Source: an uncultured Actinomycetota bacterium (GTDB taxonomy: Bacteria > Actinomycetota > Actinomycetes > Propionibacteriales > Propionibacteriaceae). From it: 64,000 nt of DNA. Below are positions 3,269 through 33,454 of the stretch, one piece after another. The DNA is taken from assembly GCA_963723815.1 (NCBI GenBank), contig CAVRSH010000045.1:48173-112172 (forward strand), written 5' to 3'. A program made the translations under genes and the position numbers. The first letter of the stretch is position 1, and each line of letters begins with the position of its first letter. The notes under the pieces are model-generated. The model ran no database searches, was not told the DNA's origin, and was given only the letters and a program-made list of their open reading frames with translations.

Positions 3269-4558
3269 GTGGCACGCATCGGAGAAAGCGGTGATCTGCT
3301 GAAGTGCTCGTTCTGCGGAAAGAGCCAGAAGCAGGTCAAGAAGCTCATCGCTGGTCCCGGCGTCTACATCTGTGACGAGTGCATTGATCTGTGCAACGAG
3401 ATCATCGAGGAGGAGTTCTCCGAGGGTGCCGAGGTCGGTCTCCTCGAGGAACTCCCCAAGCCGCATCAGATCCGCCAGTTCCTCGACGGGTACGTGATCG
3501 GTCAGACCAACGCCAAGAAGGCACTCGCGGTCGCGGTCTACAACCACTACAAGCGGGTCCAGGCGCAGGCGACCAACCCGGCCCGGCGCGCCGAGGACGA
3601 CGGGGTCGAGCTCGGCAAGTCGAACATCTTGCTGATCGGCCCGACCGGCTGCGGCAAGACCTATCTCGCGCAGACGCTGGCCAAGATGCTCAACGTGCCG
3701 TTCGCGATCGCCGACGCCACGGCGCTGACCGAAGCCGGGTATGTCGGTGAGGACGTCGAGAACATCCTGCTCAAACTGATCCAGGCCGCCGACTTCGACG
3801 TGAAGAAGGCCGAGACCGGCATCATCTACATCGACGAGGTCGACAAGATCGCCCGGAAGAGCGAAAACCCGTCGATCACCCGCGATGTCTCCGGGGAGGG
3901 CGTCCAGCAGGCGCTGCTCAAGATCTTGGAGGGCACGTCCGCCTCGGTGCCACCGCAGGGCGGGCGGAAGCATCCGCATCAGGACTTCATCCAGATCGAC
4001 ACCACCAACGTGCTGTTCATCGTCGGTGGCGCCTTCGCCGGGCTCGATCACATCATCGCGTCGCGGGTCGGCAAGCGGCCCCTCGGGTTCAACAACGACC
4101 TTGCCACCCGCCGGCCGGAATCGGACGACCCGTTCGCCGACGTCCGCCCGGAGGACCTGGTGAAGTTCGGGTTGATCCCGGAGTTCATCGGCCGGCTGCC
4201 GATGATCTCCTCGGTCTCCCCGCTGGACCGCGATGCGCTGATCAGAATCCTGATCGAGCCGCGCAACGCCCTGGTCAAACAGTTCCACAAGCTCTTCGAA
4301 CTCGACGGCGTCGAGTTGGAGTTCACCCCCGACGCGATCGAGGCGATCGCCGACCTGGCGCTGCTCCGCGGCACCGGTGCGCGCGGTCTGCGGGCCATCC
4401 TCGAGGAAGTGCTGCTCAACGTCATGTACGACGTGCCGAGCCGGGACGACGTCGCCCAGGTGATCATCTCCGCCGAGGTCGTCAAGGATTCCGTGCTGCC
4501 GACCCTGGTGCCGCGGGAGAAACTGGCCAAGCGCGAGCGTCGCGACAAGTCCGCGTAG
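3269..4558 (+). CDS. clpX: ATP-dependent Clp protease ATP-binding subunit
   Basis: C4 zinc finger CSFCGK...ICDEC, Walker A GPTGCGKT, intact 429-aa ORF. Confidence 0.99.
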
Positions 4559-4637
4559 ATCCCGCGCTCTGTCACGGCAAGGGGGGCGACCCCCTTGAAC
4601 CCCCGCCGCGCGCGCAAGAACACACGGGTGCGCGCTC

Positions 4638-5500
4638 CTAGAGGCGCATCCCTCTGGACAGGGTGCGTGCGCCGAAGTCGAGCATCCGGTCGGGCAGCAG
4701 GGTGTTCGCGGCAATGATCGCCTTGGCCGTGAACGGCATCGCATAGCGAGTCTTCGGTCGCCGGGCCTGGACCGCGTCGAGGACGGCAGCCGCGACCACC
4801 GAGGGCTCCGCTCCGAAGCGGTCGGCGAAGGCATAGAGCCGCTGCATGCTCTTGACCAGTCCGGCGTACGCGGTGTGGCCGGAGTACTTCTCCGCACTGT
4901 CGGTGGCGATGCCGCCCCATTCGGTCTTGATCGAGCCGGGCTCGATCAAGATCACGTCGATGCCGAATCCGCGCAGTTCGAGCCGTAGGCTGTCGCTGAA
5001 TCCCTCGACCGCGAACTTGCTGGCGTGGTACCAGGCGCCCAGCGCCTCGCCGAAGTGGCCGCCCATCGAGGCGATGTTGATGATCCGGCCCCGGCCCGCC
5101 TCCCGCATGTGCGGGATCGACGAGCTGGGTCAGCCGGGCCAGGCCGAACAGATTGACGTCGAACTGGGACCGGCCCTCGGAGATCGGCACGTCCTCGACC
5201 GATCCGTACGACCCGTAGCCGGCGTTGTTGATCAAGGTGTCGATGCGGCCCTGCTCGTCGATGATCGTCTTGATCATCGCGGCGGTGGAGTCATCGTCGG
5301 TGACATCCAGCGCGTGGGTGGAGATCCCCTGTTCCGGCGAGGGCGGCCATCCGGTCGGTTCGGCGGGCACCGGCGTAAACCACGTGTCCGTGCTGATGGA
5401 GCAGGAGGGCGGTCGCCTCGCCGATTCCCGACGAGGCTCCGGTGATCAAGACGACGCCGGGCTCGGGCTCCGCTGCCGATCTCCCGCCCTCGGTGTTCAT
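4638..5500 (-). CDS. Short-chain dehydrogenase/reductase (frameshifted)
   Basis: [17 protein letters not shown] and YHASK motifs across three frames. Confidence 0.9.
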
Positions 5501-8077
5501 GCGCTCAGGGTGACGTCGATGGAGAGCGGCGTGTCGGCATCGCGCCAGGTCAGTTCGCCGGTGATCCGGCCGACGGCCCGCAGGTCGGCCTCGACGGTTC
5601 GGAGCCGGTCAAGAGTCTCGAGCCGGCCCGGAGAGGTGCGCCGCGGTGACCTCGGTCTTCATCGAGACCTTGGCCTGCGACTTGGCGCCGCGGATCTCGA
5701 CCAGGGCGGCGGCGATGTCAGCCAGCAGTTCCGGGTCCCCGTCGACCTCGATCTCCTCGACCCGCGGCCAACTGGCGCGATGGATCGAGGTCTGGTGCCA
5801 CCACGACCAGACCTCCTCGGTGGCGTACGGCATGATCGGCGCCAGCAGCCGAAGCATCACATCGAGCGCGGCGAGGAGCGTCGCCTGGGCCGACGCGGCC
5901 CCGGCACTGGCCGGGCCGTACGCGCGCTCCTTCACCAGCTCCAGGTAGTCGTCGCAGAACTGCCAGAAGAACTGCTCGCTGACCTCCAGCGCACCGGTGT
6001 AGTCGTACGCCTCGAAGGCGGTGGTCGCGTCGGCGATCACGGTCCGCAACTGGGCCAGCAAGGCGCGGTCGACCGGCTCGATGATCACGTCCTGATCGTC
6101 ATGATCGACAGCTCCGCCCAGTCCGAGGACGAACTTGCTCGCGTTCAAGATCTTCAGCGCGAGCCGTCGACCGACCTTCATCTCCCGCTCGTCGAAGGGG
6201 GAGTCCAGGCCCGGACGCGCCTTGGCCGCCCGCCAGCGGACCGCGTCGGAGCCGTAGCGTTCGAGCACATCGGTGGGCACCACCACATTGCCCTTGGACT
6301 TGCTCATCTTCTTCCGATCGGGATCCATCACGAAGCCGCTGATCATCGATCGGTACCAGGGCAGCGAGTGGTTCTCGAAGTGCGCCCGCACCACCCGGGA
6401 GAAGAGCCAGGTGCGGATGATCTCGTGCGCGTGGGTGTTCAGATCCATCGGGAAGGTGAGCGAGAAGAGCTCCGGATCCCGCTCCCAGCCGCAGACGATC
6501 TGCGGGCTCAGGGAGGACGTCGCCCAGGTGTCCATCACATCCGGGTCGGCCATGAATCCGCCCGGCTGCCCGCGCTGCGCCTCGTCGTAGCCCGGCGGCA
6601 CCTCGGAGCTCGGATCGATCGGCAGCGCGTCCTCGGCCGCGCTGATCGGCTGCGTGTAGTCGGGTTCGCCGTCGGCGTCCAGCGGATACCAGACCGGGAA
6701 CGGCACCCCGAAGAACCGCTGCCGGGACACCAGCCAGTCGCCGTTCAACCCGGCCACCCAGTTGTCGTAGCGGTACTTCATGTGCTGCGGCACCCAGCCG
6801 AGTTCCTCGCCGCGGGCGAGCATCGTCTCCTTGAGGCCGGCGTCGCGGCCACCGTTGCGGATATACCACTGGCGGGTCGAGACGATCTCCAGCGGCTTGT
6901 CGCCCTTCTCGTAGAAGTTGGCCTTGCGCTGGGTGGGCGTCGGCTCGCCGTCGAGATCGCCGGAGTCGCGCAGCGCCGTGACGATGGCCTCCCGGGCGGA
7001 GAACGTGGTTTTGCCGGCGATGCTGGTCCAGTCGATGGTGTTGGCGATCCAGGTCGGCCGTTCGCCGACGATCCGGCCGTCGCGACCGATGATCACCCGG
7101 GCCGGCAGTTGCAACTCGCGCCACCACGTCACGTCGGCCAGATCACCGAACGTGCAGCACATCGCGATGCCCGCGCCCTTGTCCGGCTCGGCCGCCGGGT
7201 GGGGGAGCACCGGCACCTCCACGTGGTAGAGCGGCGTGTTGACCGTCTGGCCGAAGAGGTGCTGGTACCGGGCATCGTCGGGATGGGCGATCAGCGCAAC
7301 GCAGGCGGGAATCAGCTCGGGCCTGGTGGTCTCGATGTGGACCGGTCCCTGGGGCCCGGCGAACGCGATCCGGTGGTAGGCGCCCGGATAGTCCCTCGCC
7401 TCCACCTCGGCCTGCGCGACCGCGGTCTGGAAGGTGACGTCCCACAGCGTCGGTGCCTCCGAAAGGTAGGCCTCGTTGCGCGCGACGTTGCGCAGGAAAC
7501 CTTTCTGGGCAACGGCGATCGAGTCGTCGCCGATCGTGGTGTAGAGGCTCGACCAGTCCACACTCAGGCCGACCCGGCGCCAGAGATCCTCGAACGCCGT
7601 CTCGTCCACGTGGGTCAGTTCGTGGCACAACTCAACGAAGTTGCGCCGGCTGATCCGGAGCTGATTCTTCGGATCGGGCTTGTCGGGCGGGGTGAAATCC
7701 GGGTCGTACGGGACGGTCGGGTCGCACCGGACGCCGTAGAAGTTCTGCACCCGACGCTCGGTCGGCAGGCCGTTGTCGTCCCAGCCGATCGGATAGAACA
7801 CGTGCTTGCCGGTCATCCGCTGATAGCGGGCGATCAGATCCGTGTGGGTGTAGGAGAACACGTGGCCCACATGCAACGAACCCGACACGGTCGGCGGCGG
7901 GGTGTCGATGCTGAAGACCTCGGCTCCGGGTCTCCGGCCGGACGAACGCGTACGTGTCCTTGGCCTTCCAACGCTCGACCCATTTGCTCTCGAGCCCTCC
8001 AGCGCCGGCCGATCCGGTACGACCGGAGCACCAAGCGGTGGTGCGTCGGGTCGGTGGTCGGTCTGCTCGATGGTCAT
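5497..8077 (-). CDS. valS: Valine--tRNA ligase (frameshifts near both ends)
   Basis: [31 protein letters not shown] motifs. Confidence 0.97.
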
Positions 8078-8144
8078 GGTCGTGATCTTAGAGAAGGCCG
8101 CCTATGGCCGCGATCGCGTTTCGTGGGCCGGTACCGCAGGGCAG

Positions 8145-8163
8145 CGAGGTACACCTAACCTAA
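8145..8163. promoter_or_regulatory. Probable IdeR/DtxR iron box
   Basis: CGAGGTACACCTAACCTAA versus consensus TWAGGTWAGSCTWACCTWA (right half perfect); AT-rich in a GC-rich background; precedes a siderophore-binding-protein remnant. Confidence 0.6.
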
Positions 8164-8254
8164 CTAAGGTTGGTCGAGCCCACCGGCACGACACCGACGG
8201 CAAAGCAGTCGTCCTGCTCCTTCAGCCCGACCGTCACGACTCGTCGGGGCGACC

Positions 8255-8692
8255 GTGCTGACCGACACCGACGGAATCCAGGTCGAGAAGATCGCCGCAC
8301 TGCAGCCCGACCTGATCCTCGCCGTCATATCAGGGCGTGAAGAGTCCGACGACGACTGGTGGCGGCGGCCAAGAAGAAGGTTGCGGACGCGGCAGCGGCC
8401 CATCCGGAGTTCGGCGTGGGGAGGCCAGTTGAGCACCGAGCGGGTCGACCTGCTGGACACCGACATGATCATCTGGCTCATGGAGGGTGACGGGCGCAAG
8501 ACAGTCGAGGCGAACAAGGCCTACACCTCCCTGGCGGTGCATCGCGAGGGTCGGAGATCTTCACCGAGCCGGGGACAGCGTCTACGAGGCCTTGTCCTTT
8601 TGACCGTGCTCAGTGTCGGCTATCTGGTCGAGCAACTCACCCCGCGGCTTGCCGCGGCGGTCGACGGCGATCCCGGTACCGTCACCGACTGA
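8255..8692 (+). pseudogene. Internally deleted iron-siderophore ABC substrate-binding protein remnant
   Basis: EKIAALQPDLILAV, QLSTERVDLLDTD and LTPRLAAAVDGDPGT motifs; no signal peptide; much shorter than a full-length protein of about 300 aa. Confidence 0.65.
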
Positions 8693-23672: not shown

Positions 23673-24002
23673 TCTCGTGATCATGATCATGGTCAGCGTG
23701 GCCGCGGTGCTGCTGATGATCGCGGCCGCGCTGACGGTGTTGCGGATGTCCCGCGGCCCGAGCAGCCTCGACCGCGTGGTCGCGGCGGACGTGCTGGTTG
23801 CGGTGGTGATCGCCGCGCTGGCCCTGGAGGCGATTATGAACCACCACACCACGACCCTGCCGGTGATGCTGGTGCTGTCCCTGCTGGGCTTCGCCGGTTC
23901 GGTGGCCATCGCCCGGTTCGTCGCCGATCGCGACAAGGCGACCCGTGGGAAGTGGACGATCCCGAGCGGAGACCCGGCCGTCGGCGGGCTCGGGCACAAT
24001 GA
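23665..24002 (+). CDS. mrpF: Na+/H+ antiporter subunit F
   Basis: RGPSSLDRVVAADVL, LSLLGFAGSVAIARF. Confidence 0.88.
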
Positions 24003-24496
24003 CCGCGAGCGATGTGCTGGACCTGGCCGGCGCGGCCGCGGTGCTGCTCGGCGCGTTCCTCTGCTTCGCGGCAGCGGTCGGGCTGGTGCGCTTCCCCGAC
24101 GTGCTGAGCCGGATGCACGCCGCGACCAAGCCGCAGACTCTCGGGTTGATCTTGGTCGCGCTCGGCGTCGAGCTTTCGCTGCGTAGCTGGGCGGCGTTCG
24201 GCACGGTGCTGCTGATCGCGACCTGCCAGTTGATCACCGCGCCGGTGGCCGCGCACCTGGTCGGGCGGACGGTCTATCGCAGCAATCAGGTGCGTCGTGA
24301 CCTGCTGGTCCGCGACGAGTTGGCTGAGGACCTCGAGGCGGGTGGATTCCGGTTGTCCGACCAGCCGGTCAGCCGAGGGCGAAGCCGGATGAAGCCGGCG
24401 AAGTGGTCGGGGTCAGGTTGCGTCTTTGCGTACGCCGACCCGAGCTCCATCAGCGTCTCGACGTGCTCGACCGCGTCGAGCCGGGCGAGCTGTTGA
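23999..24496 (+). CDS. mrpG: Na+/H+ antiporter subunit G (3' end uncertain)
   Basis: VGLVRFPDVLSRMHAATKPQTLG, ITAPVAAH. Confidence 0.9.
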   Translation: MTASDVLDLAGAAAVLLGAFLCFAAAVGLVRFPDVLSRMHAATKPQTLGLILVALGVELSLRSWAAFGTVLLIATCQLITAPVAAHLVGRTVYRSNQVRRDLLVRDELAEDLEAGGFRLSDQPVSRGRSRMKPAKWSGSGCVFAYADPSSISVSTCSTASSRASC

Positions 24497-25481
24497 GGAT
24501 CGACGGTGACGTTGTAGGGCTCTAGATACTTCGGGCTCAACTCGATGTTGTAGCCGGGCATAGGCGAACATCTCGTGCGGCAACCCTTGCGACAGATACT
24601 CGCAGTTCATTGTCCAGGAATGGACCGAACCGGAACTCGCCGAGTGCCCGGCACACCACGTCATTGTGGTTCGCGGCGGCGAACATCAAGCCGGTCGGCG
24701 TATTCGTGGCCACATAGATGATGTGGCGGCGCAGCCTGCTGAGATTCTTCAGGCGACCCGGCGGAAAGCCGGTGCCGATCGAGGTGAGCAGCAGCTTGTC
24801 CGGCCCGATCGGCCACTGGAGCTTGTACTCCGGAAGCGTTGCGGCCAGGAAGAGTTGCAGCGCCGGATTGTTGTGGGCCGTGATTCCGCCGTCGACCACC
24901 TCCTTGATCCTTTGCACCGAAATTGAGCCGGAACGGCGGAAAGAACGCCGGTGCGGCCGTGCTCGCCGCAAGCAGATCGCACAGCCGAACGCTCAGGTTG
25001 TCACGCGTCTTGGACTCGCCGGTGTTGTAGGTCGCCTTGCGGGTTGTTCGACAAGGGGTAGGGCGAGTTGGTCGTCCGGTTGTGCATCACGATCAGCAAC
25101 AGGGTGCGCAGGTCGGGGCTGCCGAACGTGCGGTCCCCGAAGGCCCGGGTCAGTTCGTCGTGCAGCGGCTTGTCCGGATACTTCGACCAGGCTCGCATCG
25201 GGATGAACTTGCGCTTGCGAAAAACGCGTTTGCCGAGATCGACGGTACATACCCTTGAGTCGATCGACGGACCAGCCGAGCGAGAGGCCCGTGGCGATGA
25301 TCGCGCCGGTCGACGTACCGCCGATGTAGTCGAAGAAGTCGGCCAGGACGAAGCCCTCACGGCGGCCGGTCAGGTCGGCGAGCATCGACTCCATCTCGCC
25401 CAGAACCCCCAGCGTGAAGGCCCCCCGCATGCCGCCGCCGTCGAGTGCGAGCAGAGCTTTCTGGGAATCCTCCGCCGTCAT
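24286..25481 (-). CDS. Patatin-like phospholipase (frameshifted; 3' end uncertain)
   Basis: LALDGGGMRG (oxyanion), IGGTSTGAII (catalytic Ser), VDGGITAHNNP (catalytic Asp), LTSIGTG; GGAGG RBS. Confidence 0.9.
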
Positions 25482-25528
25482 CCTGCCTCCCGTAGGCTCG
25501 TCGACATGAAATCGATCGCGGAGCCAGG

Positions 25529-26170
25529 ATGGCACAGCCGGCACCGCGTCGGATAGCGGTCGCGGCGGCTCCGGGATCGGTTGATCATCTTCTGGATCAG
25601 CTCGACCTGCCGGCCCGTACGACAACTCTGGTGATCAACGGCGGGACCAGCGACGATCCGGATTTTCCGATCGCCGCGATCCTCCAGGCTCTGCGCGCCG
25701 TGATCGGTCGAACTGGCCTGCATGGGGACCGGTGATCATCTCCGGTGGCACCCAGGCCGGGCTGTTCAGCCTGCTCGGCGACGTCGTCGCTGAGCTCCGT
25801 TTCGCCGGTCCGGTCATCGGCGTCGTCCCTGCGGGCAAGATCAATCGGCCGAACGGCACCCCGCTGGAGCGCCATCACAGCCATGTGCTGCTCGTCGATG
25901 GCGCGACCTGGGGCGATGAGACACCCACCATGCTGGCCCTCTGCCGCGAACTGGACCGGCGCGGTCCGGTGGTCGCGTCATTGCCGGTGGCGGGGCCCAG
26001 ACCATGATCGAGATCGACGGGCATCGGGCTGACCACCGGCCGGTGATCATCTTGACCGGCACCGGCCGGCTCGCCGATGATCTTGCTCGGCGACCGCACT
26101 GGCTGGTATGTCGTCGTGGACGTCGCTGATCGGTCGTCGTCCGGCTGCCGCGGTCTCCGAGGCGCTGCAA
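25529..26170 (+). CDS. SLOG-superfamily protein, TRPM-like prokaryotic type (LSDAT_prok-like), frameshifted
   Basis: Reassembled frames give LVINGG...IISGGTQAGLFSLLG...PVIGVVP...LERHHSHVLLVDGATWGDETP...AGGG...RPVIILTGTGRLAD. Confidence 0.75.
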
Positions 26171-29100
26171 TGATCATGCCCGACGAGCCGGAATCGAAGG
26201 GCTGTGGGTCACGCTCCGAAGCGATGTCGTCGAGCGCGCGCCGAGACGCTTCGCTTCTCTCCCGGTCACCGATCCGTTCACTGATCTCCCGAGCGGTTCG
26301 GAATGTGGCGATTCGGCTTGGTCGAGGCTGCTGGTTCCCGTTCGAGGGTCGCGGTTTGCTGCAGCGCGGGGATCTGGGCTGCATCGTCGCCGAGGTCGGC
26401 GGAGATCGAGGCGGCGCGCAAGAAGTACTCGAGCGCTTGGGCGTGGTCACTGCGGCCGATCGCCAAGTGGCCGAGCTGAACCAGGGTCTCAGCTGCGCCA
26501 GCCGAGTCCTCGGACTTGTCAGCCAGCGCGAGCGCGCTGAGATAGTGCTTCTCGGCGGTTGGTTCATCGCCACGCATCAGGCTGAGAGCACCCAGCTGGC
26601 GCCAGGACTGTGCCTGCCGGACCACGATCTCCAAGCCCTCGGCGTAGCTCCAGGGCGGCGCGGAAGTGATCCTCCGCGGCATCGAGGTCGCCCGCCTGTT
26701 GAGCAGCGGCCGCGAGCCGGTCAGATTCGCTGCGGCATCAGCCAGACTCGGATGGTCGAGCCGCGCCGCCGGTGGCCGTTCGCTCTCCGCCGCCGCGATG
26801 GCGTCAAGAATCGGTGGGAGCATGACGTCGATCAGCAGCGGAACGCCCGCGCGTTCGACGTCGTAGGTGTACTGCTGCGGTTCGTCGGAATTCGAGTACG
26901 ACGAGCGAAGCGGCTCGCGGTTCTCCGCCGGCAGGACGGTAGGGTCGCCGTGGCGTCTGCAGCGCTTCCCAGGCGTCGGTCGTCACGGCGAATCCGACAT
27001 GCACCAAGCGCGGCCCGAGCCTTTGCACGATAGTCGCCAGGTAGCTCCGGAACGTGCCCACCAGCCAGTCGACGTACGCATGAAAGGTCGGCCAGGTCAA
27101 CCCGGTCTCGGCGATCCCCGGAAACTGCGAAAGTGCGGACAAGCCCGACGGGTTCGGAGAGCCCTTGGACATCGGTGCCGGATCGGGTATCCAGAGCGGA
27201 TTCTCACCACCCTCCAGAAAGGCTTGGATCGGCTGAGTGAAGTACTCACACATCGTCCGGACGTGCTGGTAGGTCGCCCAGGACTGATCGTCCGACAGCG
27301 CGAGGATGTCCCGCTCGCTACGCTCACCGCTCGATCCTTCGTCGAAGAACCGTCGCATGTGGAAGGTCAGGGCCAGCGACTGCAGCATGGTCAGCGCATG
27401 ATCAACGGAGAGCTGAGTCTCGACCGAACTCAGCCGGAATCGTCTCCCCGCCAGGGTTCTCAGGACCACCTCGGAGCCCACATCGGTCAGCACCGCGGTG
27501 GCGCCGGGATCGGCGCGGGTGATCAGTGTGTGCGACTCACCATCGGCGGCCTGCCAGGTCACCTCGACCACGGAGCGGCCTGGTGTCCGGCACCGCGAGA
27601 ACCGCGCCATCCCCGGCACCCGGGGCAGTGAACCGCAGTCCCTGTCCACGAGTTCGACCGCGATGTCGGTCGTCGGCAAGGTCGACGGGGCGGCGGCCCC
27701 GAGCCCGTCGGGAAAGCTGCTGCCGTTGACGATGGTGTCCGGGACGATGCGATCGGCGTGCAATGCGGCGACCGCCGACAGGCGCTGGGCCGGAGCGGAC
27801 GCCAAGCGTTGCCGGCGGCAGCCGCCGTTGCGCCTGGCCGAACCACCGGACGACGTCGCGCGCTATCTCGGGGCTGCTATCCAGGGTCGCCAGCGCACGG
27901 TTGAACGCCTGCTCGACCTCTTGATCATGACCGCAGATGCTTTCCCAGACGATCGTGTCCTCGAGCCGGAGCATGTCCGAGTGCCCGGCATGCGCCTCGA
28001 CGACGATCGCGCGGGCCGCGGTTCGCTGCTGCTCGTACCAGGGATTGGCCAGCTTGAGCGCGGAACAGCGCGGCGACTTCGGTGCGCATGGTCCAGGCCG
28101 TCGCGGATGCCACGTGGGTCAGCGAACTGAACCACAGGTCGGCCTCCACCCCGGCGTCCAGCGCCGGCAGCAGGCGCCGGCGGAGGCGGCGGAGGAGAGC
28201 GGGCTCGACGATCGAAGCAACACTGGCCAGCCGGGCGAGGTTGACCACCTCCAGTGGGCTGGCCAGGACCTCGGCCAGGAGCTCGATGCCTGGTTCCCGA
28301 TCAGGTTCGGCCACGGCCCACCTCGGCGAGATCATCCCAGGCGACCGAGCGCATCCGACCTGAGACGCCTCTGGTCCGGCGATGCGGCACAACTGCCGTG
28401 GCGTCGGTCTCGGAGATGATCATGGTGCGGGCCAGTTCCCGCCAGCGAGCCGCTGCCCCGGCGGACTGGCGGGGGACCGGGCCGCACCGAACGGTCGAGA
28501 TGATCATGATCGGCCGCTCGGTGTCCAGGTCTGGTAAGGTCGTCACAGTCCTCGATCCACAGCACGGCGGTCGTCGGCGCACCGGCGACCTGTTGCGCGG
28601 CCTGCACGAGATGGCTAGACGTCTTGCAGATAAGGGAGCATGTCCGGTCCGACGTCGGCGATGATGGTCACCCCGCCGTCGACCGTCTGTTCGATCAGAC
28701 GGGGGAGTTGATCAAGCGGTCGTTGCTCGGCGATCAGTTCGATGGCCGCCTCGATGTCGGGCTGGACGCTGCGCCGGGGACGTCGGATGATCATGGTCAT
28801 CGCGGCCCGCAACTGGTGCAGCGGCACGATCGGTTCGTAACGGCACGTGCCACCGCCCGGCGGCGCCGGGGATGAGTGGCTCGGCCTGCTCGAAGGTGAT
28901 CGGAGCGACCGGATCCGGAGGCAGCGGCTCGACGACCGTGCGCATCCCGACTTGATCGGCTGGGAGTTCGAGTCCGTAGCTGAATCCGGGGCCGCTGACC
29001 CCGGATCGGACTCGGCTCCGCGGCATCCCGCCGTGGTGGCTCGCGGGCTGATAGGGGTGTCCTCGGTGCGTCGGCGGAGACCGAGCAACTCAAGCACCAT

Positions 29101-29184
29101 GGCGAGATCGTCGTCGGCTTCGAGGTGCAGGGTGCGCGCGACGGTCAAGGCTTCGGCCATGCCGATCTGCCCGCGACCGGTCAC
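26170..29184 (-). CDS. Large vWA-like + helical + unknown + TPR protein (MoxR partner; several frameshifts; 3' end uncertain)
   Basis: PDIEAAIELIAEQRPLDQLPR...VTIIADVGPDMLPYLQDV; VEPALLRRLRRRLLPALDAGVEADLWFS; C-terminal TPR-like repeats (AEKHYLSALAL...AETLVQLGHLA...QALEYFLRA). Confidence 0.65.
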
Positions 29185-30108
29185 GGCGGATCGCTCGCAG
29201 TCAGCGGCTGCTTCCGGGTCTCAGGGGTCTTGCGCAGCGCGACTTCCTCGATCCGTTCCCAGAGCGGCGAACCCGGATACTCGCCGAACTTCAGACAGGC
29301 TCTCAGTGCGTCGAGATACTCAGCCATGGAGGGCGCCCGGCGCTGGGCCTGCTCGGCGTCGGAGACGAGTTCGAGGGTGCGTACAGCAAGATCACGGTAG
29401 AGCGTGCCCGGCCGCGGCCCGAAGTGTGATTCCGCGACGGCGACGAAGAAGTCGGGATCGATCGTCATCCAGTTCGAGCGTGACGCAGCGGCGCAGGAAG
29501 GCCGGTGGCATGGTGCGCTCGCCGTTGCTGGTGATGATCACCAGGCACTCCGTCTGCGCGCTGATCGGGTCCAGACCGGGCACCTCGATCGTGTAGCGGT
29601 CGAGTGGGGCCAGCAGATCGTTGGGCAGGTCCGGTTCGGCCTTGTCGATCTCGTCGAGCAGCACGACCGTGCCGAGCCGGTCGCCGTCGGGGTTGATCCG
29701 CCGATCCTTGGGCGCGGAGATCGCCGCCCGGGCCGAGTCGGGCGCGAAGGCCCACCAGAGCACGCCGGGCACCAGGTAGGCGCCCTCGCGCTCGTCGATT
29801 TCTTGACCTGGGCGTGGCTCAGTCGTTTCACGGCGTCGAACCGTGCGACCAGGTCATCCAGCGGGTACGCGACGGTGATGGTCGTCTTGGCCAGTGCCCA
29901 GCCGAGGCGGCGCGCGACGTCGTCGGCGAGTGTCGACTTGCCCGACCCGGGCGAACCGGTGACCAGCAACGGGCGCCGCGTGATCATGGCCACGTTGACG
30001 GCGTAGACGATGCGCGGGTCGTGGTAGACGTAGGCGCGATCATCGGGCCCGAGCGGGATCCGGCGGGCGGTGCGGGTCGAACGGCGCGCCGGCGAAATTG
30101 GCGGTCAC
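29181..30108 (-). CDS. MoxR-like AAA+ ATPase (frameshifted)
   Basis: AVNVAMITRRPLLVTGSPGSGKST, PGVLWWAF, VVLLDEIDKAEPDLPNDLL, IITSNGERTMPPAFLRRC, PSMAEYLDA. Confidence 0.9.
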
Positions 30109-30111
30109 CGG

Positions 30112-31387
30112 TCAACCCAGGCTGTCGATCGCGCTGACGTAGTCACGGATGATCTCCTTCTCACGGTCGGCATCGAGTCTGGGGACCAGTTCGACGAGAT
30201 TGGGTGGCAGCGGACCGTCGATCCCCCGGGCGTCGAACATGACGAAGGAGATCGCCGGGTACGCGGCGTCGAGCCGGGCCAGCACGTCGGCGCCGATGGT
30301 GCCGGGCACGGTGACATAGCGCGGGGTCGAGCGCAGTTGGTCATCGATCTCGGCGTCGGTCAAAGATCGATCAGTCGACGATTCTGCAGCTTCCAGGCGG
30401 CTCGCAGATCGGCTTGCAGCGACTCGAAACTGGCGTCGGCGTTGTTGATCGGCATGATCTTGGGCCGGCCGGCGAGGTTGGCCCGGGCGATGTACCAGGG
30501 CACGGTCTGCTGCGGGCCGCGTCGTCTGGATACTGGCATGCACGCAGCCCGAACCGTTCGCTCGCTTGCGCGTCAGCAGAGCCGCCGCATTGGCATCGAG
30601 CGGCAGTGGAGCCAGGGCATCGATGATCGCCAACCGCTGATCATCGGAAACGGCCGATCCGAGCAGGTCCAAGGCGTTGCGGATGTCCTGCAGCCGGCCG
30701 CTGCCGACAAGATGCCGAGTGATCGACATCGCGGCTCGCGTTGCGCGCTCGCCCTGAAGGTAGCTGATGTCACGACCGAAGGTGTCGATCACGCCGATCC
30801 AGCAGACCACCGGCCACGGCACCCAGGTTGGTGGCCAGTTGCAGGGCGAGGCGGTCAACCGGTGATTGGTACGGGGTCAGCGTCCCCTTGCTCAGGAGCG
30901 TGCCGATCACCAGTTGACCAACCTGCTGGGGCGTACTGCCCCGGGCCTGCTGGATCCGGTTGAGGTCCACGACCCGCCAGGTGCCCTCGCCGAACTTGGC
31001 CCGTTCGGCCGCCCGCGCGGCGCGCGCATCCAGAGGCGTCAGCCGTGCCGTCGGCCTTGGGAAGAAAGTTGACCGGAATGAACTGGAAGTCCGGATCGAC
31101 CTGATTGCGCAGTGACAGGAAGATCGCCTCGGTCAGCACCCAGTCGGAGTTCCGGGCGTTCTCGTCGAGGATCACGATCGCCGCGTGGCAGGCGTGCAGC
31201 ATGAACGCGATCCGCTGCCGCCAATCGTCACCCGGGGCCAGTTGCTCCTTGTCGTACACGACATCGAGTGTCAGATGACATCGAGCACGGTGTCGCCGGC
31301 CGCAGCCTCGATCGCCCCGACGAGCGCGGTCAGCCGGGGCAGGTCGGCCTCAGGCGTGCTGTGGCTGACGAAGAGCCGGAATCCCAT
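30112..31387 (-). CDS. TIR-domain protein with an uncharacterised C-terminal domain (about 425 aa; frameshifted)
   Basis: RLFVSHS...YDKEQLAPGDDWRQRIAFMLHACHAAIVILDENARNSDWVLTEA...IPV (TIR_2 pattern with the conserved Glu). Confidence 0.8.
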
Positions 31388-31510
31388 CTGGTGATCCTCG
31401 CGTCGGCAGGAATGGGGCACCGATGAAGCATTTCTAGCAGATAGAGGTACGAGCGGGCCGGTGCAATACATGCGGTTCGCCACTGATTCGGGCATTAGGC
31501 TGGCCGCGTT

Positions 31511-33454
31511 ATGACGACCACCGAGACCGAGGCACCCGAGTCGCTGTTTCCCCGGCTGGAACCGCTGCTGGCCCGGGTCAGCAAGCCGATCCAGTACGTC
31601 GGCGGTGAGCTGAACTCCCAGGTCAAGGAGTGGAACTCGGTCGACGTCCGCTGGTGCCTGTCCTACCCGGACGCGTACGAGGTGGGGCTGCCCAATCAGG
31701 GCGTGGCGATCCTCTACGAGATCCTGAACGAGCAGGACTGGATCCTGGCCGAGCGCACGTACGCGGTCTGGGCCGATCTGGAAGCGCTGATGCGCGAGCA
31801 TCACGTGCCGCAGTTCACCCTCGACGCGCACCGGCCGGTGGGCGCGTTCGACGTGTTCGGCCTCAGCTTCGCCACCGAACTCGGCTACACCAACATGTTG
31901 AACGCTCTCGATCTGGCCGGGATCCCGTTGCACGCGGTCGATCGGCGCGAGCACGACCCGATCGTGCTGGCCGGCGGGCACGCCGCGTTCAACCCGGAGC
32001 CGGTCGCCGACTTCCTCGACGCGGCCGTGCTGGGCGACGGCGAGGAGATCGCGCTGCGGATCTCCGACGTGGTCCGGGAGTGGAAGCTCGAGGGGCGGCC
32101 GGGAGGACGCGACGGCCTGCTGCTGCGGCTGGCCGCCGGCGGCGCGGTGTACGTGCCCAAGTTCTACGACGTCTCGTACCTGCCGGACGGCCGGATCCAG
32201 CGGGTGGCACCCAACCGGCCGGACGTGCCCTATCCGGGTGGCGAAGCACACCCTGATGGACCTGGACGCCTGGCCGTACCCGAAGAAGCCGCTCGTGCCG
32301 CTGGCCGAGACCGTGCACGAGCGCTACTCGGTGGAGATCTTCCGCGGCTGCACCCGCGGCTGCCGGTTCTGCCAGGCGGGGATGATCACCAGGCCGGTAC
32401 GGGAACGCAACATCGAGACCATCGGTGCGATGGTGCAGGGCGGCATCGAGGCGACCGGGCTCGAGGAGGTCGGACTGCTGTCGCTGTCCAGTGCCGACCA
32501 TTCCGAGATCGGTGAGATCACCCACCAACTCGCCGATCGCTACGAGGGAACGAATGTCTCGCTGTCGTTGCCGAGCACCCGGGTGGATGCGTTCAACATC
32601 GACCTGGCCAACGAGTTGTCCCGCAACGGGCGGCGCTCGGGACTGACCTTCGCTCCCGAGGGCGGCTCGGAGCGGATGCGCAAGGTGATCAACAAGATGG
32701 TCACCGAGGACGACCTGATCGCCACGGTCGCGGCCGCGTACTCGCACGGCTGGCGGCAGGTCAAGCTGTACTTCATGTGCGGTCTGCCGACCGAGACCGA
32801 CGAGGACGTGCTGGCGATCGGTGAGCTGGCCAAGCGGGTGATCGCGACCGGGCGTGAGGTGAGCGGCCGGCGCGACATCCGTTGCACGGTGAGCATCGGC
32901 GGCTTCGTGCCGAAGCCGCACACGCCGTTCCAGTGGGCGGCGCAGCTCGACGCGGAGACCACCGACGCCCGGCTGGCCAAGCTGCGGGACGCCGTCCGGA
33001 GTGATCGGCAGTACGGCAAGGCGATCGGATTCCGCTATCACGATGGCAAGCCCGGGCATCATCGAGGGCTTGCTGTCGCGTGGTGACCGGCGGGTCGGCA
33101 CGCATCATCGAGGCGGTCTGGCGCGACGGCGGTCGGTTCGACGGCTGGAGCGAGCACTTCTCATATCAGCGCTGGGCCGCATCCGCCGAGGAGGCGCTGG
33201 ACGGCACCGGCGTCGATCTTGACTGGTACACCACGCGGGAGCGGGAGTACGCCGAGGTGCTGCCCTGGGATCACCTGGACGCCGGCCTCGATCGCGACTG
33301 GTTGTGGGAGGACTGGCAGGACGCGCTGGACGAGGTCGAGGTCGAGGACTGCCGCTGGACGCCGTGCTTCGACTGCGGCGTCTGCCCGCAGCTGGACACC
33401 TCGATCCAGATCGGACCGACCGGGCGGAGTCTGCTGCCGCTGACGCCCGTCTGA
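31511..33454 (+). CDS. TIGR03960-family B12-binding radical SAM protein (frameshifted)
   Basis: VSKPIQYVGGELN, YPDAYEVGLPNQG, RGCTRGCRFCQAG, C-terminal CRWTPCFDCGVC. Confidence 0.92.

Follow-up and report, generated by a model that had tools for sequence, protein, structure and literature searches.

A probable TERNS3 MoxR-vWA operon beside a patatin/SLOG gene pair in an uncultured member of the Propionibacteriaceae

The DNA analyzed here is a stretch of 64,000 nucleotides (the window) from contig CAVRSH010000045.1 of an uncultured Actinomycetota bacterium in the family Propionibacteriaceae (assembly GCA_963723815.1, positions 48,173 to 112,172 of the forward strand). Between mrpG and the TIGR03960 gene, it carries a block of six genes in two modules: four minus-strand genes that very probably form an operon of the predicted MoxR-vWA system TERNS3, and a divergent gene pair encoding a SLOG protein and a patatin. 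The region from 24.2 to 31.5 kb is rich in single-base insertions and deletions (indels), and its genes, which read as fragments, were mapped with the help of intact relatives; the GC content of the block is about that of its flanks. A Pfam scan of 101 stop-to-stop frames of the window placed TIR_2, AAA_5, LSDAT_prok, Patatin, and TPR_12 matches where an earlier interpretation of the locus (the sequence-only reading) had put the TIR, MoxR, SLOG, patatin, and TPR domains. What had been read as a single vWA-like/TPR protein is, however, two overlapping genes (29184-28301 and 28314-26174), and the block therefore holds six genes rather than five. The features are as follows.

30112..31387, minus strand: gene 1, TIR followed by a predicted TERNS3-N (helical) and TERNS3, about 425 residues (TIR_2, our own profile, mapping of the L098 protein)
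29181..30108, minus strand: gene 2, MoxR AAA+ ATPase, 309 residues (mapping of P0001, motifs)
28301..29184, minus strand: gene 3, putative stand-alone vWA-type protein with an N-terminal helical part (our own profile)
26174..28314, minus strand: gene 4, vWA-L helical linker, beta-rich segment, unnamed domain, and TPR tail, about 700 residues
26720..27430, minus strand: unnamed conserved domain of about 230 residues within gene 4
25529..26173, plus strand: stand-alone LSDAT_prok SLOG gene, about 215 residues (Pfam PF18171, mapping of P0137)
25482..25528, no strand: spacer of 47 bp between the divergent patatin and SLOG starts
24369..25481, minus strand: patatin-like phospholipase, about 370 residues, 3' end approximate (Pfam Patatin, three motifs)
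26176..31450, no strand: approximate extent of the putative TERNS3 insertion relative to congener G002 (junction alignments)

Pfam models were complemented by our own profiles for genes 1, 3, and 4, built from 23, 23, and 14 loci, respectively, with the close relatives L097 and L098 left out. Gene 1 had been taken for a bare TIR gene. The TIR domain stands (TIR_2 at 30858-31349, minus strand, E = 3e-7), and its catalytic glutamate, in a column invariant in 39/39 relatives, is kept in the window (WVLTE), but the gene continues into a TERNS3 module of about 270 residues, matched by our profile at 30130-30741 (E = 1.3e-13), and the intact L098 protein maps across 31381-30118 in four pieces. Gene 2 starts 3 bp past the gene-1 stop and comprises MoxR-type AAA_5 pieces at 29395-30104 (minus strand); the protein P0001 maps onto it in three pieces with 86-99% identity, and the Walker A (GSPGSGKST), Walker B (LLDEIDK), and FLRRC motifs are intact. 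Gene 3 overlaps the MoxR gene through GTGA and was matched at 28618-29175 (E = 2.5e-19) by the profile from 23 four-gene loci. The Pfam VWA, VMAP-C, and iSTAND models had no match in the window frames; the putative vWA label of gene 3, which lacks Pfam VWA support, is drawn from our profile and from the gene order of Kaur et al. 2021.

Gene 4 is set apart from gene 3 by a real stop, a GTG start behind GAGG, and a 14-bp overlap, and intact relatives show the same split. Our vWA-L profile matched 27807-28284 (E = 6e-23 and 6e-12), TPR_12 matched 26281-26982 (minus strand), and the proteins P0202 and P0198 map across the gene. In addition, gene 4 contains a conserved domain without a family or fold match. 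This domain has 26 representatives among 1.84 billion proteins; in the 23 that were scanned, no Pfam model matched over the domain, and the domains that follow it are TPR, WD40, CHAT, trypsin, or TIR. Its predicted structure has a pLDDT of 90, the fold search gave no clear match (best Z of 6.2 to generic helical bundles; Foldseek E above 0.8), and its Atlas neighbors at 0.91-0.92 are unnamed clusters.

TERNS3 MoxR-vWA systems were predicted by Kaur et al. 2021 (PMC8195603). Their first gene carries TERNS3-N and TERNS3, mostly with TIR, and is followed by MoxR, vWA, and a separate gene joining vWA-L to an effector. The window presents the same succession: a first gene with TIR, TERNS3-N, and TERNS3, MoxR second, vWA third, and a separate vWA-L fourth. 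Also listed as TERNS3 traits are anti-invader activity, which is predicted only, and a bias to multicellular hosts. We surveyed at least 79 genome and at least 80 metagenome loci around MoxR relatives and found, among the matches listed, that the four-gene core recurs in many phyla, with a TIR or a peptidase joined to the 270-residue module, MoxR, a vWA-type gene of 310-360 residues, and a long fourth gene whose head is helical and whose tail varies. On a MoxR tree of 54 rows, P0001 groups with the four-gene loci L097/L098 (support 99/99). There is no public TERNS3 model, and the listing of supplement file 2 of the 2021 paper holds no TERNS3 alignment. The published table (Fig. 2-source data 1, parts 3-5; 79 rows by our count) is linked to our profile through two of its entries, RLJ15768.1 and KFB72205.1, which share 90% clusters with the gene-1 proteins of L025 and L020, respectively, both loci being in the profile. 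That L020 is the NMQ07203.1 locus was not established; it is tied to the table through KFB72205.1.

The window thus shares with TERNS3 the gene order, the split vWA, a gene 1 of about 425 residues, and the profile link to these two tabulated proteins. It differs in gene 4, since a vWA-L followed only by the unnamed domain and TPR is in none of the 79 rows, where "??" is listed with caspase, S1, hydrolase, or STAND plus TPR. NCBIfam, Pfam, and PADLOC searches of the window fragments and of intact relatives named no system. On sequence grounds, the four minus-strand genes are nonetheless very probably a TERNS3 operon. The sequence-only reading, which did not recognize the five-gene combination as a named system, was right to class TIR-MoxR-vWA with the MoxR-vWA conflict systems of Aravind type; the core matches the described TERNS3 (PMC8195603). 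Fourth genes elsewhere take other forms: the operon at L232:3076-12173 (G355) ends in vWA-L-STAND-TPR, and at L121:3172-5859 a TERNS3 gene 4 is fused to the type VI secretion sheath domains VipA and VipB, a layout also found in the 2021 table. Contractile-sheath parts are an odd effector tail.

Next to the operon, LSDAT_prok matched the plus strand with E values of 3e-20 and 1e-6, P0137 maps onto the SLOG gene at 64-88%, and intact relatives are stand-alone LSDAT proteins of 215-218 residues. The patatin (Pfam E = 2e-14) has all three catalytic motifs that had been reported for it (DGGGMRG, GGTSTG, and DGG), and an intact copy of 378 residues is present in G511. Its relative P0224 scored under the NCBIfam cut-offs, with 119 of 200 bits for the CBASS lipase and 89 of 400 bits for DS2_1. 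Tight coupling joins TIR, MoxR, and vWA but does not extend to the patatin. The patatin is separated from gene 4 by 0.7 kb containing the SLOG gene, with which it is arranged head to head, the two starts being 47 bp apart. The same divergent arrangement of the two genes, their starts separated by about 50 bp, occurs in four genomes of the genus (that of the window, G002, G501, and G511), and both proteins are well conserved. Judging from equal-sized contigs in the match lists, 10/39 patatin relatives apparently share a contig with a SLOG relative, nine of them from the same source and three on contigs of only 2.8-4.1 kb; the corresponding figure for MoxR relatives is 1/39, on a contig of 1,184 bp that is too short for both. 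Such linkage of patatin, SLOG, and MoxR relatives is indirect evidence. The pair recurs and, from a literature search, seems undescribed, although the supplements of Burroughs et al. 2015, reportedly the paper defining LSDAT, may bear on it. The only paper found with both "LSDAT" and "patatin" (10.1101/2023.05.26.542521) presents them, in its accessible part, as separate partners of a TPR protein. A conserved gene of 316-323 residues with no Pfam match lies near SLOG or patatin in G511 and G535 (L223:2031-3002 and L227:4395-5342), and in G533 a TPR-S-trypsin gene and the gene of a distant LSDAT SLOG are arranged head to head (L234:2710-4314).

SLOG and patatin had been expected to co-occur with homologous TIR-MoxR-vWA loci. 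In 38 fetched TERNS3 loci with a full core, 28 of them flanked by 2.5 kb on one side and 15 on both, the two were never found together, nor were they in any of the 79 published rows. (L096 and L097, which look like one locus in two assemblies, are both among the 38, and L232 was counted apart.) Taken singly, an LSDAT-type SLOG lies beside 0/38 loci, a SLOG of another family in or beside 2/38 (L023 and L153), and a patatin beside 2/38 (L029 and L097), while the published table has SLOG in or near 4/79 rows and patatin in 0/79. An open reading frame of G355 facing the 3' end of its TERNS3 operon looked by eye like a SLOG with membrane helices; Pfam and hhalign did not confirm this, and it was excluded from the counts. 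Patatin and SLOG are most probably not obligate parts of the TERNS3 operon, and the block is likely two neighboring modules rather than one five-gene defense system. A looser TIR-SLOG link is possible because SLOG lies near 4/79 and 2/38 loci, patatin lies near 2/38, and the pair of G501 adjoins a TIR gene. That gene encodes 376 residues and faces the pair (L226:3579-4706); elsewhere in the genus, G485 has TIR-WD40, LSDAT SLOG, DUF4231, and SLATT_1 in one run (L233:2915-6515), a candidate TIR-SLOG-pore system.

Among the flanks of other TERNS3 operons, that of L097, the closest intact one, has directly upstream and on the same strand (4349-8379) a TPR-S/MAP3K_TRAF_bd gene and a TPR-S-patatin gene. 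TPR-type genes also lie upstream of TERNS3 in L021 and L022, and at L029:13624-17698 the genes after the operon, on the same strand, are two for WD40 proteins and one for a patatin that belongs to the same broad clade.

The site itself was compared across the genus. The MoxR gene is present in 1/126 genus genomes (0/125 congeners) and in 2/401 of the phylum, and close MoxR relatives were found in none of 60 relatives and in 1/400 of the phylum. SLOG occurs in 9/126 genus genomes, six of them with a close match; three of 125 congeners have the pair (G002, G501, and G511) and two have SLOG alone (G509 and G535), all without MoxR. G002 matches the window at 24000-26153, from mrpG through patatin and SLOG, and again at 31489-31700, with only about 90 bp between, and in both G002 and G511 SLOG directly adjoins the TIGR03960 gene. 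The pair of G501 is at a different site, the SLOG genes of G509 and G535 stand alone within the slot, and the slot of G520 is empty; other congeners fill it with BenE/XRE, ABC transporters, or a hydrolase/TetR pair. Because it holds such varied cargo, the slot is a general hot spot, with the TERNS3 block likely its last layer; SLOG and its patatin partner are likely the older residents and the TERNS3 operon the latest insertion. No terminal repeats or target duplication were found at the insert ends. The SLOG and gene-4 stops adjoin tail to tail without a gap (TGATCA, window 26171-26176), leaving no space for terminators between the converging genes. Promoter and terminator scans of the block stayed at chance level or were uninformative, no RNA holders were listed for it, and G000 (62% complete) has no second copy of any of its parts.

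We then turned to the fold of the TERNS3 module, whose structure predicted from L098 (pLDDT 90) combines a helical part with an alpha/beta core of five strands. In a search of 48,161 chains, 50/50 matches listed were P-loop NTPases by title and 48 of them AAA+/STAND, the best being Cdc6/Orc1 (Z = 8.7, rmsd 5.8, 171 aligned) and ORC2 (Z = 8.2); Apaf-1, Dark, and plant NLRs matched at Z near 7, and two further comparisons, one with Foldseek, were similar. A Walker A motif is present in 0/42 TERNS3 rows. Atlas neighbors include iSTAND clusters at 0.80-0.84, which are leads only, and the TERNS3 profile found nothing below an E value of 0.01 among the sequences of solved structures. From this model, TERNS3, which Kaur et al. 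2021 described as a novel alpha+beta domain, probably has a Walker-less, inactive STAND/AAA+ fold, and this stays a prediction because the Z scores are middling and the sequence tests negative or weak. In the TERNS3-N region of the L098 gene-1 protein (gene at L098:355-1644), residues 166-203 gave a weak Death_3 match (E = 0.04), and the helical spacer may be Death-like.

Two neighboring modules make up the explanation that we favor for the block as a whole, with a probability of roughly 0.7; for its mechanistic part, in which gene-4 sensing leads through MoxR remodeling to NAD+ cleavage by TIR, the odds seem to us even. TIR NADases require being brought together, and STAND modules oligomerize. 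Gene 1 would be a small NLR-like protein in which a helical spacer and an ATPase-dead STAND-type module carry a TIR NADase, while docking of gene 3 to vWA-L, the head of gene 4, would rebuild the vWA co-chaperone that is a single chain in VMAP systems. Recognition of an invader protein would fall to the swappable tail of gene 4, which is TPR here and WD40, caspase-like, trypsin, or TIR in relatives; the MoxR ring, using ATP, would then remodel the complex and free gene 1 to oligomerize, gathering TIR domains that cut NAD+ and bring the infected cell to growth arrest or death. MoxR rings are described as remodeling vWA-bound clients (PMC7159879), and a 2026 preprint gives experimental support for a different, related MoxR-vWA pathway in threat sensing and signal relay (PMC13622651). 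Loss of NAD+ is ranked first as the output because gene 4 has no recognized toxic enzyme; Kaur et al. instead favor a TIR-made signal (PMC8195603).

Several observations weigh against parts of this reading. On the MoxR tree, the four-gene loci do not form a single clade, and direct pairwise likeness to RLJ15768.1 and KFB72205.1 covers TIR only, so that the TERNS3 link needs the profile. Our literature search found experiments on no TERNS3 system, and the name itself only in Kaur et al. 2021. The vWA metal site, for which two aspartates are stated in most ternary systems (PMC7159879), is partly eroded: in the frameshifted gene 3, the first aspartate is retained (IIADVG), the consensus serine and the fourth-strand aspartate were not seen, and the intact L097 vWA likewise has no second aspartate. 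For the fold, Z scores of 7-9 are middling, the best Foldseek E is 1.1e-3, and hhalign of TERNS3 to a shallow four-row iSTAND-like alignment gave no match. Flanks of 2.5 kb on both sides are available for only 15/38 loci, and the loci were drawn from the matches listed. Finally, the SLOG and gene-4 stops abut exactly, the layout is bridged by contigs of two other studies, and SLOG and MoxR relatives seem to share one contig of 55 kb, so that this lineage has inherited the layout of all six genes.

All block genes are frameshifted in this assembly, as they would be in a decayed pseudogene cluster, an explanation that we consider highly improbable. Breaks are similarly frequent in the housekeeping TIGR03960 gene, which is in four pieces, near-identical intact proteins are known (P0001, P0198, and P0136), and short-read contigs from other soil/rhizosphere runs, which cover the block in 30/30 bins in three runs and in 29 in one, show single-base indels relative to the window at many break sites and lack several of its extra bases; for these reasons, the frameshifts are likely assembly errors. 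The arrangement of the genes is real, as short-read contigs of other studies bridge both the patatin/SLOG junction (X1, X2, X3, and X7) and the SLOG/gene-4 junction (X2 and X4). The operon could also serve as a non-defense chaperone or signaling unit, its MoxR-vWA pair assembling some cellular complex. Of the MoxR-vWA pairs studied, most act as assembly chaperones (PMC7159879), the related pathway of PMC13622651 relays signals, and PADLOC models match none of gene 1, MoxR, and vWA of intact relatives at an E value of 1e-4. We judge this improbable, as the patchy spread (1/126 in the genus, 2/401 in the phylum), the invariant TIR glutamate, and the highly variable gene-4 tails are marks of a conflict system.

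Closer to the sequence-only reading is the proposal that all six genes act as one system here, the TERNS3 TIR making an ADP-ribose-type signal that SLOG binds or processes to switch on the patatin, and the operon being kept because it was inserted beside a ready sensor/effector pair. A gene 4 without an obvious enzyme would profit from an outside effector, signal production by TERNS3 TIRs has been proposed (PMC8195603), and SLOG or patatin lies near a few TERNS3 loci (4/79 published rows, L023, L153, L029, and L097); the G501 pair faces a TIR gene, and a distant LSDAT of G485 belongs to a TIR-LSDAT-DUF4231-SLATT run. However, five congeners have the pair or SLOG alone without MoxR, both genes together are beside 0/38 and 0/79 other TERNS3 loci, the six genes run in three separate transcription directions, and the slot carries unrelated cargo in other congeners. 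Activation of CapV-type patatins by cyclic dinucleotides, moreover, needs no SLOG. The one-system reading is largely refuted, because the core matches TERNS3 and SLOG and patatin do not travel with it, and we regard it as very unlikely; equally unlikely is its coupled version, in which a chaperone-gated, minimal NLR-like TIR-STAND protein was recruited beside a preexisting TRPM-like SLOG/patatin pair and now drives it, the stand-alone LSDAT binding an ADP-ribose-type messenger made by the TIR and activating the phospholipase. A more plausible, if still doubtful, view, compatible with two neighboring modules, makes the patatin/LSDAT pair a nucleotide-gated lipase module of its own, in which the stand-alone TRPM-like SLOG would sense ADP-ribose or a related nucleotide, whatever its source, and control the lipase. 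The conserved head-to-head pair in four genus genomes, once at a different site (G501), and the linkage of 10/39 patatin relatives to SLOG are in keeping with this. Against it, G509 and G535 have SLOG without patatin, G469 and G734 have related patatins but no SLOG within 1.5 kb of them, L029 too has a related patatin without SLOG, and the pair is seemingly confined to close kin, so that plain inheritance can explain the pairing.

Other known systems resemble the block in part. iSTAND and iSTAND2 share with it a related MoxR clade, an inactive STAND third component (predicted for the block), and TIR fusions, and iSTAND2 also a split vWA (PMC7159879, PMC8195603), but the Pfam iSTAND model (PF19995) matches neither gene 1 nor its relatives, gene 1 has the extra TERNS3-N, and the third components of iSTAND2 are for the most part shorter and fused to EAD. 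VMAP ternary systems have the same order of third component, MoxR, and vWA and variable effector tails (PMC7159879), whereas the window and its intact relatives have no Pfam VMAP-C match, their vWA and effector are separate genes, and the MoxR of the block has, by eye, no VMAP-type N-terminal extension; the VMAP and iSTAND systems of Kaur et al. 2020 (PMC7159879) were thus rejected as fits. P0137, the protein that maps onto the SLOG gene, matched no PADLOC model. The patatin has the fold and the three motifs, and there are partial matches to CBASS effector models, but its relative P0224 scored under the curated cut-off (119 versus 200 bits), and no CD-NTase cyclase lies beside the patatin in the window frames scanned. 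CapV of CBASS is a patatin-fold phospholipase, and type I Thoeris combines the TIR protein ThsB with the SLOG-SIR2 protein ThsA. TIR and SLOG are neighbors in the block as well, but its SLOG is a stand-alone LSDAT_prok protein without SIR2 and is present without the TIR operon in congeners.

If the very unlikely coupled version were true, the block would be a defense circuit caught mid-assembly and would offer a ligand test for a bacterial counterpart of the TRPM SLOG domain. The fold-less domain of gene 4 and the recurring patatin/LSDAT pair are modest new leads. If the predicted STAND/AAA+ fold is correct, TERNS3 would merge with iSTAND and iSTAND2, and gene 1 would be a small bacterial look-alike of TIR-NLRs whose assembly is run by a separate ATPase. 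TERNS3 systems are known from prediction, and the window adds a compact actinobacterial example without an obvious toxic tail, in which it may be possible to tell whether the third-component TIR does the killing itself or only makes a signal.

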